This document shows, piece by piece, positions 9,753-15,308 of a stretch of DNA of 64,000 nt (its first letter is position 1; the number at the start of each line of letters is the position of its first letter). The position numbers and the translations under genes were made by a program. Origin of the DNA: Escherichia phage vB_EcoM_F1; the sequence record NC_054912.1. The stretch is one strand, 5' to 3'. Below the pieces are notes generated by a model. The model was not told the origin of the DNA. It searched no databases and saw only the letters and a program-made list of their open reading frames with translations.

Positions 9753-10223
9753 TTAATCATGTTTCCACACCCCATCGGTATTTGACCAAAGTCGCTGATT
9801 ATCTGATCCTCGCCACAGCTTTTTAGTCGGAAGATTTTTCTCATACTTCCCATCAATAATAACATCAACATATTTAAGCATTTCTAGTTGTTTAATATCT
9901 TCAAACTTATATCCTGTCCACAACCAAATGCTTTTATTGGGATAAAGATTTTTTACTGTTTGAACGATGCAATGAATCACGTCTCTGTTATCAGGATAAA
10001 GAGGGTCACCTCCGGTTATAGTTAATCCTTCTATATAATCATTATTCAAACATTCAATTAATTGTTCTAGTGTTTCACCAGTGAATGGAATACCATTTCT
10101 AGCATTCCATGTTGATTTATTATAACACCCTTCGCATTTATGCAAACAACCTGTAACGAAAAGAACGGTCCTGCATCCAGGGCCATTCACAAAATCGCAA
10201 GGATAAAATCTATCATAATTCAT
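9753..10223 (-). CDS. nrdG: anaerobic ribonucleotide reductase activating protein (radical SAM)
   Basis: 156 aa; CxxxCxxC-type cluster motif GCLHKCEGC. Confidence 0.9.
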   Translation of the reverse strand: MNYDRFYPCDFVNGPGCRTVLFVTGCLHKCEGCYNKSTWNARNGIPFTGETLEQLIECLNNDYIEGLTITGGDPLYPDNRDVIHCIVQTVKNLYPNKSIWLWTGYKFEDIKQLEMLKYVDVIIDGKYEKNLPTKKLWRGSDNQRLWSNTDGVWKHD

Positions 10224-11520
10224 TGGTGTTTAACCCTATGCATGATTTCTTTATTTTTACCGAGATTAAATCCGCGTTCGTTCGGATTTCCCAAATAACC
10301 ACATGTTCTTCTTATGGTATTCATCTTTTTAGGATCAGTTTCTCCACAAATAGAACAAACAAATCCGTTTTCAGTAGGAGTCATTTCATGGGTACTTCCA
10401 CATGTAAAACATTTATCTACTGGCATATTAACACCAAAATAATCTAAATGTTGTGCAGCATAATCCCACACGGCCTCAAGACCCTTTAAGTTATTTTTCA
10501 TATCAGGAAGTTCAACATAAGAAATGTGACCACCTGTCGCAATGAAATGATATGGCGCTTCACGAGAAATCTTTTCAAACGGAGTAATATTTTCTTCTAC
10601 TGAAACATGGAAACTGTTAGTGTACCAACCTTTATCAGTAACATCCTTTACACTTCCATATTTTTCTGTATCGAGTTTACAGAAGCGATAACAAAGGTTT
10701 TCAGCAGGAGTAGAATATAAACTAAAAGCAAAACCGGTTCTTTCAGTCCACTGTTTAAGATGAGCATTCATTTTAGTTAAAATTTCTCGTCCAATATCAC
10801 GACCGACAAGAATATTCAATTCGTGAATACCAATGTATCCTAGGGACACTGAACTTCTACCGTTTTTAAATAACTCAATTATGTCGTCATCAGGTTTAAG
10901 ACGAACCCCGAATGCACCTTCTTGGTAAAGAATAGGAGCAACAGTAGCTTTAACTCCTTTTAAGGAACTAATTCTACACATCAAGGCTTCAAAACATAAA
11001 TCCATTCGCTCATTGAATAATTCAGTAAATTTCTGTTCATTGAGCTGTGTTCCAATATAAGAATCTAACGCGATACGAGGAAGATTCAGTGTTACAACAC
11101 CAAGATTATTACGTCCATCAAGAATTTCATTACCAGTCGAATCTTTCCATACGCTCAAGAAACTACGGCAACCCATTGGAGAAACAGGAATAGATGAACC
11201 AGTGATAGCTTTATTGTTCTTAGCTGAAATAATATCAGGATACATTCTTTTGCTTGCACACTCTAGAGCAAGCTGCTTAATATCATAGTTCGGATCGTCT
11301 TTATAAAGATTAACACCTTCTTCAACAAACATAACAAGCTTAGGGAAAATAGGAGTTATCCCATCACGACCAAGACCTTTAATACGATTTTTCAGAATTG
11401 CTTTCTGAATCATTCGTTCAGTCCAGTCAGTTCCCGTACCAAATGTAATTGTTACAAAAGGCGTTTGCCCATTAGAGCTGAAAAGTGTATTTACTTCATC
11501 ATTATATTCAGCATGAGTCG
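10220..11520 (-). CDS. nrdD: anaerobic ribonucleotide reductase NrdD, exon 2
   Basis: Class III RNR sequence including the C-terminal glycyl-radical region (RRTCGYLG); 5' boundary is the 3' splice site, placed only to about 20 nt. Confidence 0.85.
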
Positions 11521-11727
11521 CAAATTCATGCCCGTTTATATGAAACAACAAAATTTGGATAGTCCATAGATATGCAACGTTCTTTTATAGTGCTAGGATG
11601 AAAATTTAGCGCTTTAGCTGCTTCTATATAAGACGTATACTTAATACCGTCAACAACCACATATTCAGGAACTTTATGAATAGTAGTCTTAATACTCAAA
11701 ACAAGAGGATGAGTTTCGACTTCACTT

Positions 11728-12297
11728 TCAGTGCAATTTAAATATTCCGCTGCTTTTTTTAAAACTTCTAAAAGTTTTATTTTTAAGCTTTATCGATACT
11801 TGTTTTTTACTTTTTCGACTATTGATATTATTTTGCACATGTTCCTTAGATCTTCCGTTTTTAGCATAATATTCAGCTATAGAAGATTTTATATTGTTTT
11901 TATGAGATTCGGATAACACTTTACCCTTATGAGCATCTCTTAATTTTTGAATATGTTCTTCAGTATCCGGATGCTTATAAAACTTTTTACCGCCTATGGA
12001 TTTATTTAAACATTTTTTGCTATAAAAATGTTTACGTATGACCTCTTCTTCATGTTTTAATGCATCTTTATAACTATCAAATGTTTTTAAAATTATCCAT
12101 TTAGTAGGTGTATCAGTTTTTAAGCGTTCATTTATATACTTAGATGACGTTGTGTAAGTTTTCCAGTTTGTGGGCTTGTTTTTAATTGTTCTAAATTTTT
12201 TATAACCGATATAAATGTCGCCGTTAGAAAACTTAACTAAGTATGTAAATGCGTCTTTATCTTTTATTTTAGTACAACGTCTTTTTATCCATTTCAT
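11728..12297 (-). CDS. intron-encoded GIY-YIG homing endonuclease (I-TevII-like), N-terminal catalytic part; gene appears frameshifted
   Basis: 189-aa ORF with GIY-YIG-type motif (FSNGDIYIGY); a C-terminal HTH-like segment continues in the +1 frame at 11528-11790. Confidence 0.7.
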   Translation of the reverse strand: MKWIKRRCTKIKDKDAFTYLVKFSNGDIYIGYKKFRTIKNKPTNWKTYTTSSKYINERLKTDTPTKWIILKTFDSYKDALKHEEEVIRKHFYSKKCLNKSIGGKKFYKHPDTEEHIQKLRDAHKGKVLSESHKNNIKSSIAEYYAKNGRSKEHVQNNINSRKSKKQVSIKLKNKTFRSFKKSSGIFKLH

Positions 12298-12336
12298 TGT
12301 TTCACCTCGTATTCATAAGATAATCTTATTTATACA

Positions 12337-12344
12337 AGATGACT
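12337..12344 (-). promoter_or_regulatory. late promoter (TATAAATA) inside the intron, upstream of the endonuclease ORF
   Basis: Plus tatttata = TATAAATA on minus strand, about 40 nt upstream of the ORF start. Confidence 0.55.
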
Positions 12345-12537
12345 GCTGCATGTCGCCATGCAGATTAGACTATATCTTCATCTTTCGATGCCGGCCGTTT
12401 CGAATAGCATTAGCTTCTATTCTACACCGCTACATTCATCACGGTTAGTCGTTAGGCATTTAGTTCAAAAGAACATTTAGCACGGGATTGTCTACTAGAG
12501 AGGTTCCCCGTTTAGACCGGTTTTACATGAGCCTGAA

Positions 12538-13083
12538 TTAAATTAACTCATACGCCTGGAACGCGTCATAGACATCTTTTTCTGTTTTAGATTGAGCATA
12601 ATTCAATGCATCAGCGATTTGCCATTTTTCTGCATCCTCAATATGTTTTGCATAGGTGCGTTTAACATAAGGAGAAAGTACTTTATCTACATTCGCAAAA
12701 GTCGTTCCGCCATATTGATGGGAAGCAACCTGTGCAGTAATTTGTGCCATAATTGCAGTAGCAACACCGATTGATTTAGGAGTTTCAATCTGTGCATTAC
12801 CAAGCTTAAATCCATTCTCAAGCATTCCTTTTAAATCTACTAAACAGCAATTAGTAAATGGAAGAGCAGGGGAATAATCAATATCGTGGAAATGAATAAT
12901 TCCGCTTTCATGCGCTTTCATAATAAAAGACGGGACCATATTTTTGGCAATGTGTTTAGACACAATACCAGCCATAAGGTCCCGTTGAGTTGGAAAAACA
13001 CGAGAATCTTTATTAGCATTCTCGTTTAAAAGGTCTTTATTAGTTTTATGAATCAATCCTTCAATTTCTTTTTCAATTGTCAT
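12538..13083 (-). CDS. nrdD: anaerobic ribonucleotide reductase NrdD, exon 1
   Basis: N-terminal NrdD sequence; the ORF reads through the 5' splice site, so the 3' boundary is approximate. Confidence 0.85.
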   Translation of the reverse strand: MTIEKEIEGLIHKTNKDLLNENANKDSRVFPTQRDLMAGIVSKHIAKNMVPSFIMKAHESGIIHFHDIDYSPALPFTNCCLVDLKGMLENGFKLGNAQIETPKSIGVATAIMAQITAQVASHQYGGTTFANVDKVLSPYVKRTYAKHIEDAEKWQIADALNYAQSKTEKDVYDAFQAYELI

Positions 13084-13553
13084 TTTAAACTCTTTCTAAG
13101 CTGCTTCTTAAATGAAGCTATTAACTGTGTTTTGGTGTCAGATTCATTATATTCAAATCCTCTTTGAAGCATCTCAGCCATCATTTCCTCTTTTCCTAAA
13201 CGAGAAAATTCCTTTGATTTATCTCCAACAAAGTTAGGGTGAATATTATTTTGGGTGTAATCGGATTTTAAATAAGTAAGTAAATTTTCTAACCATTCAA
13301 GATAATCAACACCTTGTCCCTTTAAGCCAGAACGATTAAATTTATGCTTCATTTGACCTTCTGCAGCATTGCAGAGATTACAAAGCAATCCACGTACCTT
13401 TCCTGCTTTTGGTCCATTTAATTCATGGTCATGGTCGAGGTGATTAGCTTGAACATCAGGATTTAGTTCTCGTTGGCAAATTAAGCATTTACCGTTTTGT
13501 GCATCATAAAATTTCTGTTTTTCTTCTTTGTATAATTTGCCAGTCAATAACAT
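13080..13553 (-). CDS. 49: endonuclease VII (Holliday-junction resolvase)
   Basis: 157 aa with Cys-rich zinc-binding N-terminus; matches T4 gp49. Confidence 0.9.
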   Translation of the reverse strand: MLLTGKLYKEEKQKFYDAQNGKCLICQRELNPDVQANHLDHDHELNGPKAGKVRGLLCNLCNAAEGQMKHKFNRSGLKGQGVDYLEWLENLLTYLKSDYTQNNIHPNFVGDKSKEFSRLGKEEMMAEMLQRGFEYNESDTKTQLIASFKKQLRKSLK

Positions 13554-13595
13554 AATAAAACCCTTACCTTAAATAGATAAGGGTATTTATTATTT

Positions 13596-13772
13596 TTAAG
13601 TATTGTAAAACATTCGATGCAATCGTTTATACTGTCGAATCATCTTTTTAGTAGGACGAGAATAGGTTCCTACGCAAGTGGTCATATGAGGGTCCGTAGA
13701 ATGTCCTTTAATAAAAAGTTTCCAAACCTTACCGCCATTTAACTTTTCAGTATAAACCAATTCGGTTTTCAT
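13596..13772 (-). CDS. small ORF (58 aa) sharing its C-terminal tail with Pin
   Basis: Not in the ORF track (below size cut-off); MKTELVYTEK...MIRQYKRLHRMFYNT; preceded by a purine-rich RBS. Confidence 0.5.
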   Translation of the reverse strand: MKTELVYTEKLNGGKVWKLFIKGHSTDPHMTTCVGTYSRPTKKMIRQYKRLHRMFYNT

Positions 13773-13807
13773 TAAAATGCCCTGTCAGAAAAAGAATTTT
13801 GAGTTTT

Positions 13808-14293
13808 TCAAGTATTATAAAACATTTGATTCAATCGCTTATATTGCCGAATCTTTTGGTCAGAAAAAGAAATTTGGGTTTCAAGCCATTCAATATATTC
13901 TGCCGCAGCTTGCATCAAATTTCCTTCATAGCCATCGTTATTTTCTTGTGCAGCTAATTTAGCTAATGCGTATGAAATACGTTCACCTTGAAAACCGGCT
14001 TTAGGTTTATGAATAGCTTGATCAACTCGTTCTACAACTTCTTCAATTTCGCCGTTTTCGACTGATTCAGTATTCCACAAACACCAATACGTAATTGGCT
14101 TATCATAGATGTTAATAATCTTTCCGTCGGAAAGTTCAATTTCAATAATTCCAGTATCAGGTTCTATATCATCTTCACATTCTTTTGCAAGTTCACGAAC
14201 TTTAAAGACAGTACCTGCACTAAGTTCCGGCCAGTAATTACATAGCCCTGTATCAGCACGATTAATTCTAAACCACTTATCTACTGTAATCAT
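13808..14293 (-). CDS. pin: Pin, inhibitor of host Lon protease
   Basis: 161 aa from the internal Met; position beside gene 49 and sequence as recalled for T4 pin. Confidence 0.7.
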   Translation of the reverse strand: MITVDKWFRINRADTGLCNYWPELSAGTVFKVRELAKECEDDIEPDTGIIEIELSDGKIINIYDKPITYWCLWNTESVENGEIEEVVERVDQAIHKPKAGFQGERISYALAKLAAQENNDGYEGNLMQAAAEYIEWLETQISFSDQKIRQYKRLNQMFYNT

Positions 14294-14415
14294 GTCCCAT
14301 CTCCATATCAATTAAGTCATTTATCGTTGGTTCATTATATACTGTTTCTTCATCAGTGTAAACCGGTTCTTCCGGCTCTGGCTCTACAGTTTCCCATCTA
14401 GCCGCCCACCAAGGT

Positions 14416-14625
14416 TTAACCCCGAAGCTTATTAAGTTCTTCATAACCAATCCAGGATTCTAATCCTGATGGCAGGTCACATTCAATTTCCCAAAGAAGT
14501 TCTTCAATTTTATGAAGACGATCTAATTCTTCAGCTGGAATAGTAACCATTGATGGAGTTATTGATACACTAATATCGTAAATCATATTTACCCCAGTTT
14601 GACCATGCAATCGCCGTATTTCCAC
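14416..14625 (-). CDS. hypothetical small protein
   Basis: 69-aa ORF. Confidence 0.45.
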   Translation of the reverse strand: MEIRRLHGQTGVNMIYDISVSITPSMVTIPAEELDRLHKIEELLWEIECDLPSGLESWIGYEELNKLRG

Positions 14626-14804
14626 TTAGAAATAGACTTTTCGCCATTAGAATAATAAACTTCGAGTTTAGCACGATTATTTTTAATTTGAATAACCTTT
14701 GCTGTCATCAAAGTTCCATACCCATAATAAACTGCAACTTCATCACCTACATATACCGCGCTTCCGCGGTAATCGTGAATATAGTCAGTTCCTTCGATCA
14801 TCAT
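14589..14804 (-). CDS. hypothetical small protein
   Basis: 71-aa ORF. Confidence 0.45.
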   Translation of the reverse strand: MMIEGTDYIHDYRGSAVYVGDEVAVYYGYGTLMTAKVIQIKNNRAKLEVYYSNGEKSISKWKYGDCMVKLG

Positions 14805-15064
14805 TTAAAATATTCTCGCAGTTGGTCAAATCCACCAATATGACTTCCATCAGGAGCAAATACCTGGGGCATTGTCAAGCCAATTTGAGTATCACGACCT
14901 AGTTTAGTCAGAATCTCAGCGATTTTCTCATCATCAAAAACACCTTTTTCCGGCATAATGTTGATAAATTCAAACGGCTGTTTCTTCACGGTCAAAAGAC
15001 GTTTTGCATTATCGCAATACACACATTTATGAATGTTGCTATCATAACCATATACTTTAAACAT
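14801..15064 (-). CDS. nrdC: phage thioredoxin/glutaredoxin
   Basis: 87 aa with CVYC active-site motif. Confidence 0.9.
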   Translation of the reverse strand: MFKVYGYDSNIHKCVYCDNAKRLLTVKKQPFEFINIMPEKGVFDDEKIAEILTKLGRDTQIGLTMPQVFAPDGSHIGGFDQLREYFK

Positions 15065-15065
15065 A

Positions 15066-15308
15066 TTATTCCTTAATTCCTAGTACTTGTTTAAAAGTCT
15101 CGTCGTAATCAAGACTTTGGCCCGTTTGTTCTTTATGTTTGTATATAATATCACTTACTTCTGATAGCATATTTTTATATGAACGAGTTAAAGCAGATTT
15201 AAGCACGCTGTATCTATCAGGAAATTTACCATGTTCATTATAATAAGCTATTGCTAATTCACGGACTGCCTTTTCAGCAGCCTCCATATATTCTTTACGC
15301 TTGGTCAT
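15066..15308 (-). CDS. hypothetical protein (nrdC.1 position)
   Basis: About 80 aa from the internal Met MTKRKEY; the listed ORF extends to 15449. Confidence 0.45.

Follow-up and report, generated by a model that had tools for sequence, protein, structure and literature searches.

The Pin protein of phage T4 (PinA; UniProt P07068; Inhibitor_I24, PF10465) binds the Lon protease of E. coli directly and is not degraded (PMC8835725); in this source and the references it cites, all biochemistry on Lon inhibition was done with T4 PinA. A literature search returned nothing on the C-terminus of PinA or on C-terminal truncations, and no paper in this search mentioned DUF7279, the second protein family of interest here (phrog_3272; RB32ORF078c, RB69ORF087c, S16 gp48.1). 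Two kinds of genetic event in T4-like phages are comparable to what is described below. The classical T4 rII deletion r1589 joins rIIA to rIIB in frame. In the hyperplastic regions of T4-type genomes, small ORFs are shuffled modularly, including as promoter/stem-loop (PeSL) cassettes.

The window, the whole stretch of 64,000 nucleotides that was analysed, carries a pin gene whose product is the 161-aa orthologue of T4 Pin with the same, apparently fused, C-terminus. Between pin and gene 49 lies a 58-aa ORF, a full-length member of the DUF7279 family in its usual place upstream of gene 49. At the protein level it does not differ from the rest of the family. Its context is special, since the pin gene upstream of it is fused and carries a second copy of its last 15 codons. 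We consider it probable that the DUF7279 tail was fused onto Pin by a deletion and that the intact small gene was later regained by recombination. As in r1589, an upstream stop codon and a downstream start codon would have been deleted, giving one chimeric reading frame. In contrast to r1589, the pin fusion is natural and fixed in a large clade, and the intact downstream gene would have been regained later. Like the regions of PeSL-type shuffling, the interval between pin and gene 49 is a plastic slot, which depending on the phage is empty or holds DUF7279 or an ORF of another family of 89-94 aa. A PeSL mobile cassette was considered and rejected, because the repeats of the locus are coding remnants and no sigma-70-like site precedes the ORF. 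The type of event is ordinary for the plastic early regions of T4-like genomes and does not represent a new kind of system.

Layout of the locus and its two pairs of direct repeats

Across positions 13000-14500 the window is 100% identical to the Tequatrovirus vB_EcoM_FN (MZ170041.1), and several hundred T4-like phages match it at 97-98% identity. According to the ORF listing, every gene of the neighbourhood lies on the minus strand (Table 1). The 58-aa ORF had been taken to be unlisted in the original prediction, but it is annotated as FN1NEW_0082 in the vB_EcoM_FN record and as a hypothetical protein in hundreds of relatives; a note on its counterpart in the RB32 record reads 'similar to RB69ORF087c, JS98orf087clike, pin'. 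The sigma-70-like site upstream of pin is the sole strong one in the neighbourhood, and no promoter-like site was found in front of the DUF7279 gene, on its pin side. Co-transcription of the two genes is therefore probable. The terminator-like hairpin is located 3' of repeat copy A1, outside the repeat, and is identical across the alignment of all three types of the locus described below. A search of positions 10500-15200 against Rfam at gathering thresholds gave no structured RNA element.

Table 1. Features of the pin-gene 49 neighbourhood (positions in the window)
Feature	Positions	Strand	Remarks
nrdC	14801-15064	-	first in transcription order, followed by three small ORFs
sigma-70-like promoter TTTACA-17-TATAAT, 11/12	14334-14362	-	5' of pin; consensus match only
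pin	13808-14293	-	161-aa Lon protease inhibitor; apparent chimera: codons 1-146/147 native, 147-161 (13811-13855) from DUF7279
repeat copy B2	13859-13881		inside live pin, codons about 138-146; 91% identical to B1
repeat copy A2	13805-13853		3' end of pin; 86% identical to A1
junction J2, A run right after the pin stop	13804-13808	-	T4-type left meets HY01-type right
repeat copy B1	13784-13806		inside the relic
relic of the original tail-less pin 3' end, 33 nt	13772-13804	-	non-coding; from alignments and the SP1 match
DUF7279 small gene, intact	13596-13772	-	58 aa; between pin and gene 49
native tail, DUF7279 codons 44-58 (MIRQYKRLHRMFYNT)	13599-13643	-	C-terminal helix of the fold
repeat copy A1	13593-13641		3' end of the DUF7279 gene
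hairpin (terminator-like)	13560-13584	-	just upstream of the gene 49 start codon
gene 49 / endonuclease VII	13080-13553	-	after the 58-aa ORF, followed by nrdD

The repeat search yielded two pairs of direct repeats. In the longer pair, A1 and A2, 42 of 49 nucleotides match (86%) at a spacing of 212 nt, and each copy ends at the stop codon of a minus-strand ORF. When positions 13400-14400 were shuffled 200 times with the dinucleotide composition preserved, the best 49-nt self-match had 28.4 ± 1.0 matching positions and never more than 31. The A1/A2 repeat is therefore not due to chance. The repeat of the pin 3' end reported in the original prediction is thus real and lies almost exactly where it had been placed. 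The translations likewise agree with the C-terminal residues that had been quoted as shared: the 58-aa ORF ends in ...MIRQYKRLHRMFYNT and Pin in ...KIRQYKRLNQMFYNT, and the N-terminal parts of the two proteins are unrelated. The second pair, B1 and B2, comprises 23 nt at 91% identity and a spacing of 75 nt. It was absent from the earlier description and is needed for reading the anatomy of the locus. In the direction of the minus strand the elements follow each other in the order B2, A2 (with the pin stop), B1, X and A1 (with the ORF stop); X denotes the N-terminal portion of the small ORF, which is unique.

The DUF7279 gene and the C-terminal tail of Pin

The 58-aa ORF matches the Pfam model DUF7279 (PF23945) with 62.7 bits at a cut-off of 24.5 (E 3e-17). 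Its residues 7-56 cover all 53 positions of the model (1-53), and the tail lies inside the domain. It also matches phrog_3272 (E 3.4e-34), whereas no match at E <= 1 was obtained with PF10465 and phrog_2167. Reading the ORF as a Pin was rejected, because it has no PF10465 match and shares with Pin only the 15 residues that Pin seems to have acquired secondarily. A comparison with T4 49.1 had also been proposed; the gene of gp49.1 lies on the upstream side of pin, and its product shows no similarity to the 58-aa ORF that could be aligned. In the AlphaFold2 model of the 58-aa protein (best pLDDT 81.7), three beta-strands are followed by a helix of residues 42-56, which corresponds to the tail. 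The protein is strongly basic, with a pI of 10.2 and a charge of about +9. Compared with the orthologues of HY01 and NC-G, the gene has a dN/dS of 0.15-0.17 (Nei-Gojobori), with 0.16-0.24 in the body and 0-0.11 in the tail. A dN/dS of about 0.16 indicates that the small gene is under purifying selection.

Members of DUF7279 were found in Tequatrovirus, Dhakavirus, Gaprivervirus, Mosigvirus, Carettavirus and Gelderlandvirus, and at the sensitivity of the query used a full-length homologue was present in 424 records across genera. Judged by these comparisons, the 58-aa ORF has the behaviour of a protein-coding gene that is conserved across phage genera, and DUF7279 stands out as a conserved small gene with a possible link to pin. 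The helix motif RPTK..R..KR.HR.F is conserved in DUF7279 paralogues that are only 41% identical. The members from Mosigvirus, Dhakavirus, Carettavirus and Gelderlandvirus retain this motif and pass the Pfam threshold, and in Salmonella phage S16 (Gelderlandvirus) and in phiE142 (Carettavirus) DUF7279 is present without pin. Outside these phages little was found. A word-indexed search with DUF7279 gave 10 close relatives, and an exhaustive profile search of 1.84 billion representatives only 9 matches at E <= 0.001. Long multi-repeat proteins among the profile matches (P0047, P0050-52) look spurious. Sequence searches of the PDB returned no relative of Pin or DUF7279, and Foldseek found nothing in the PDB below E 0.27; resemblances to dsRBD, HigB2 and Pur-alpha are weak and not significant. 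In a structure search of BFVD, the sole significant neighbour was an uncharacterised S16 protein, which itself belongs to DUF7279.

The pin product matches Inhibitor_I24 with 163.6 bits at a cut-off of 27, but only with residues 4-141, and the Pin family phrog_2167 (146 positions) matches only residues 1-146. Residues 147-161 align instead to positions 44-58 of phrog_3272. Tequatrovirus Pins come in two lengths, one of 161 aa ending in ...FSD(R/Q)(M/K)I(Q/R)QYKRL(H/N)QMFYNT and one of 148 aa ending in ...FSDRAF. Distant Pins (40-50% identity) from three metagenomic lineages are tail-less and end in ...FSSKSF, ...FNAKSF and ...FSDRGF directly before the stop. The same holds for the distant Pins of Karamvirus CC31 (...FNSRKF), Dhakavirus NC-G (...FADKAF) and Mosigvirus (...LERRLS). 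In L018 and CC31 gene 49 comes immediately after the tail-less pin, and the small ORF is absent. Every Pin examined outside the T4-type and FN-type Tequatroviruses, two locus types defined below, is without the tail and ends in either F-x-x-x-x-F or LERRLS. Since the tail lies inside the DUF7279 domain and is conserved there in the absence of pin, and since the Pin profiles stop short of it and outgroup Pins are tail-less, these comparisons indicate that the tail is a DUF7279 element and a secondary addition to Pin.

By the same comparisons T4 PinA, the reference inhibitor of Lon, itself appears to be chimeric, with its final 15 residues derived from a DUF7279 gene. This is a modestly useful result and the one of note here. 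These residues would be a captured helix from outside the Pin family, which bears on the design of constructs and on future PinA-Lon structures. For annotation it means that 148-aa Pins are to be regarded as complete and not as truncated. The body of Pin is strongly acidic (pI 4.3, charge of about -16). In its AlphaFold2 model (pLDDT 68.9), the tail forms a low-confidence extension of the last helix.

Three states of the locus and their probable order

Base-for-base alignment of T4-type, HY01-type and FN-type loci defined three states. In the HY01-type (HY01, SP1), a tail-less pin ends with ...TCT GAC CGA GCA TTT TAA and its TAA overlaps the ATG of the DUF7279 gene (TAATG). This architecture is also present in Dhakavirus and Gaprivervirus, and with a 9-nt spacer in Mosigvirus. 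In the T4-type, exemplified by T4 and the IMG/VR contigs L010-L012 and L014, a segment of this arrangement is missing. T4 lacks exactly the HY01 sequence between ...TCTGACCGA and ATGATTC..., that is, from GCATTTTAATG... through ...ACTAAAAAG, and this amounts to 137 nt as computed from HY01 coordinates. As 137 equals 3x45+2, the deletion exactly offsets the frame difference between pin and DUF7279. At the resulting junction J1, which joins pin codon 147 to DUF7279 codon 44, GAC CGA is followed by ATG ATT..., so that Pin(1-147) is continued by DUF7279(44-58) and the DUF7279 stop is used. No microhomology beyond 0-1 nt was found at this deletion.

The FN-type is represented by this window, fFiEco06, RB32, RB33 and L013. 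Here the fused pin with A2 and its stop is followed by a run of A residues, by the sequence ACT CAA AAT TCT TTT TCT GAC AGG GCA TTT TAA (continuing TG...), by X and by A1. Up to and including its TAA this sequence is the relic: in the old pin frame it reads TQNSFSDRAF and a stop, and the TAA overlaps the DUF7279 ATG (TAATG), leaving the old stop/start overlap intact. The relic now appears to form the spacer and the native translation-initiation region of the DUF7279 gene. The A run of junction J2 has 5 A residues in the window and 6 in fFiEco06, RB32 and L013. Apart from this length polymorphism, J2 is common to all FN-type records inspected. We used a synthetic join of pin-body sequence, relic and the start of X as a query, and it matched SP1 (MT682709) in a single piece at 99% over 100 nt; in SP1 the matched sequence forms the 3' end of a live 148-aa pin, after which DUF7279 follows. 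In the multiple alignment, the FN pin with its tail matches the T4-type contig L010, and the FN relic with the DUF7279 gene matches SP1 with 2-3 differences. A2 equals the pin tail of L010 up to the pin stop, save for one synonymous TAC/TAT difference. The repeats are thus homologous in position to single-copy sequence of relatives and the junctions are identifiable, which marks the FN-type locus, on alignment, as a recombination scar. The original prediction had offered a scar as one alternative, and this alternative is supported by the three aligned states, their junctions, the relic and the parent-like sequence of SP1.

The IMG/VR survey contained only 6 loci, and a census was therefore drawn from GenBank phages by means of BLAST summaries. 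By extrapolation from rows sampled at even intervals in a single BLAST table, the roughly 436 Tequatrovirus-like records with a match comprise about 250 of the T4-type (roughly 58%), about 110 of the FN-type and about 75 of the HY01-type. A record was counted as T4-type when only the tail part matched, as FN-type when the match was one collinear piece and as HY01-type when it consisted of two non-collinear pieces; because BLAST summaries join non-collinear pieces, the split between FN-type and HY01-type is approximate.

It seems likely that the HY01-type is ancestral, since its architecture is common to four genera and outgroup Pins are all tail-less. In this ancestor the DUF7279 gene would have occupied the interval from pin to gene 49, its translation coupled to that of a tail-less pin by the TAATG overlap. 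In one Tequatrovirus lineage, the in-frame deletion of 137 nt would then have removed the last two codons and the stop of pin together with DUF7279 codons 1-43, giving the T4-type and with it the 161-aa Pin of T4, composed of Pin(1-147) and the C-terminal helix of DUF7279. All fused tails carry a derived CGA>CAA change (H-R-M to H-Q-M) that is absent from every Tequatrovirus DUF7279 tail seen, and this shared change argues for a single fusion ancestor. The first codons past the fusion point read R-M-I-Q in T4, Q-M-I-R in RB32 and Q-K-I-R in FN. Three of these four differ, a dense cluster of changes that could reflect several independent fusions or an adaptive adjustment of the junction.

The FN-type would have arisen when a T4-type left half was joined to a HY01-type right half in the A run after the pin stop. 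The right half would have brought in the last 33 nt of an unfused pin, which are now non-coding, and the intact DUF7279 gene. One unequal crossover at the level of microhomology between co-infecting T4-type and HY01-type phages most likely accounts for this, with the crossover point between ...ACTTGAAAA and ACTCAAA...; GGCTTGAAACTCAAA inside pin may be compared. Against a clean crossover, J2 does not fall cleanly in the 7-nt microhomology CTTGAAA and contains 2-3 extra A residues. The 49-nt and 23-nt repeat pairs would be the scars of these events. In principle, the locus could pass between the three states through these repeats: an exchange between A2 and A1 would excise 212 nt and restore the T4-type, and one between B2 and B1 would excise 75 nt and restore the HY01-type with the correct ...SDRAF end of pin. 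With this as the most likely order of events and crossover mechanism, the locus would be a fully traceable natural case of gene fusion, re-acquisition and short-repeat scars in a plastic early region of T4-like genomes.

The states might also have followed each other in another order. A HY01-type locus could have turned into the FN-type in one complex replication event, with a template switch to the tail and back to the pin 3' end, and the T4-type could then have arisen by simple recombination of the 49-nt repeats. Deletion between direct repeats is indeed the simplest route to a T4-type locus, the FN pin tail is almost identical to T4-type tails such as that of L010, and a single J2 junction is present in all FN-type records sampled. 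However, this order demands two simultaneous template switches or an unobserved intermediate with two full copies of DUF7279, and J1 can be explained without any repeat. In addition, FN-type pin bodies are mosaic, as a comparison of FN with fFiEco06 demonstrates. Mosaic bodies would be the expected outcome if recombination had carried J2 into T4-type backgrounds that already existed. We therefore regard the FN-type as an unlikely starting point for the T4-type and prefer the order in which the deletion came first.

Functional readings and comparable fusions

A further possibility is that selection maintains the tail on both proteins as a module, for example as a Lon- or Pin-binding helix, with the small protein acting as a second effector or decoy. 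Several observations would fit. The two genes are adjacent in Tequatrovirus, Dhakavirus, Gaprivervirus and Mosigvirus, with usually overlapping or near-overlapping stop and start codons, and Mosigviruses have a DUF7279 paralogue on either side of pin. Fusions have arisen in at least three ways (T4-type, P0038 and P0037), the Pin body is acidic (about -16) and DUF7279 basic (about +9), and the tail frame is open in all nine tailed pins inspected. On the other hand, tail-less Pins are the norm, and DUF7279 occurs without pin in S16 and phiE142. The changes in the Pin tail, few as the sites are, are mostly non-synonymous and replace basic residues (R>Q, H>N), a pattern resembling relaxed constraint. 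The nucleotide identity of 86-94% reflects common descent rather than convergence. Neither the PDB, by sequence or by fold, nor the literature search offers a described relative, and the sole structural neighbour is the S16 protein mentioned above. As the tail-less Pin seems to be the ancestral and widespread form, the idea of a decoy or a shared interaction motif loses its premise, and maintenance of the tail as a module appears improbable to us.

It is likewise doubtful, judged from sequence, that DUF7279 is a functional partner of Pin against Lon or another host target and that its basic helix serves as a portable module for binding. Such a link is hinted at only by the repeated fusions. 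If it were true, the repeated Pin fusions and the coupled adjacency would be a 'Rosetta-stone' signal and T4 PinA a streamlined two-in-one inhibitor.

That the tail is native to Pin and that the pin 3' end was copied onto, or captured by, an unrelated downstream ORF, the direction assumed in the original prediction, is suggested by the tailed Pin and the missing small ORF of the reference phage T4 and by the T4-type being the most numerous (roughly 58% of about 436 Tequatrovirus-like records, extrapolated), but is very hard to reconcile with a Pfam DUF7279 model that includes the tail, with a tail motif kept in paralogues of 41% identity and in pin-less genomes, and with Pin profiles that end before the tail and Pins that all lack it outside the T4-type and FN-type Tequatroviruses; the direction of transfer is thus to be reversed, with the tail intrinsic to DUF7279.

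The proposed transfer of the tail from DUF7279 to Pin has analogues elsewhere. In P0038, Pin is fused after ..LERR (Pin residue 132) to FHRDFYNVY, the end of the downstream paralogue of Mosigvirus; a deletion at an ACGTTT common to both sequences could account for this fusion. In P0037, a whole upstream DUF7279 is fused to the N-terminus of Pin. In phiE142, a crossover in ACTTTTATA, which is shared by the tails of the two flanking DUF7279 paralogues, removed pin, leaving behind a chimeric DUF7279. Considering phiE142, P0038 and the other fusion events, the tail-coding DNA seems to be a recurrent breakpoint. In Mosigvirus UGJNEcP1, DUF7279 paralogues flank pin.

Paralogues flanking pin and the loss of pin

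Mosigviruses have a DUF7279 gene on either side of pin, and the two paralogues are divergent: an upstream copy (MQVKLLYR...HRNFYREY) and a downstream copy (MKTELFYG...HRDFYNVY). Some of these phages carry the upstream paralogue alone, and in mar005P1 this copy is present without annotation. The Carettavirus phiE142 lacks pin and has a single, chimeric DUF7279 ORF, the body of which corresponds to the upstream paralogue, while the last codons and the 3′ flank correspond to the downstream one. The crossover lies inside ACTTTTATA, which is common to both paralogues, indicating that the two DUF7279 tails recombined and pin was lost in the process.

Coordinates of the features described in this part (L handles denote compared pin/gene 49 loci, with coordinates within each locus sequence)
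Feature	Sequence	Position	Strand
pin and DUF7279, Mosigvirus UGJNEcP1	L006	906-1680	
pin and DUF7279, mar005P1	L009	1474-2098	
Chimeric DUF7279 ORF, phiE142	L007	1501-1671	
Frameshifted DUF7279, IMG/VR contig	L015	~1899-2080	
Locus with 89-94-aa family, Gaprivervirus VR26	L019	1059-1501	
pin fragment, VR26	L019	1059-1232	
Locus with 89-94-aa family	L016	2446-2730	
Hairpin directly before gene 49 start	window	13560-13584	minus
Small ORF two genes upstream of pin	window	14416-14625	minus
Insert interrupting nrdD	window	11552-12537	minus
nrdD flanking pieces	window	10220-11551 and 12538-13083	
189-aa ORF in nrdD insert	window	11728-12297	
57-aa ORF in nrdD insert	window	11526-11699	

Further fusions and remnants

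Two proteins from metagenome assemblies are additional Pin-DUF7279 fusions with different breakpoints. In P0038 (141 aa), Pin is joined after LERR to FHRDFYNVY. In P0037 (191 aa), loss of a stop codon joins the whole upstream DUF7279 to the N-terminus of Pin. Since each is represented by one or two contigs, assembly error is possible. The DUF7279 gene of an IMG/VR contig has a frameshift in a run of T's around codon 6, so that it is a pseudogene unless the homopolymer was misread in sequencing.

A different family of small ORFs, of 89-94 aa, is likewise found between pin and gene 49 (...ITEYMI...ECEYP.F...), for which no Pfam assignment was obtained. Upstream of the member in VR26, the annotation shows only a 57-aa fragment of pin. 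In Dhakavirus NC-G, pin survives as an ORF only in its C-terminal part.

Neighbouring elements in the window

Just after AATAAATA, a late-promoter-like motif, lies a hairpin of 10 pairs, followed by TTTATTATG. This hairpin is kept in every aligned locus type (T4-, HY01- and FN-type) and is probably similar to the translational hairpin known from gene 49 of T4.

An insert of about 1 kb separates two pieces of nrdD in the window. A scan of positions 10500-15200 gave no match to an Rfam intron family at the gathering score. The nrdD gene of T4 contains a group I intron with I-TevII, whereas in the window insert the endonuclease reading frame appears to be split or different.

On the other side of pin, the small ORF two genes upstream bears the label 'antitoxin from a toxin-antitoxin system' in RefSeq relatives; this putative antitoxin ORF is unrelated to the pin/DUF7279 finding.
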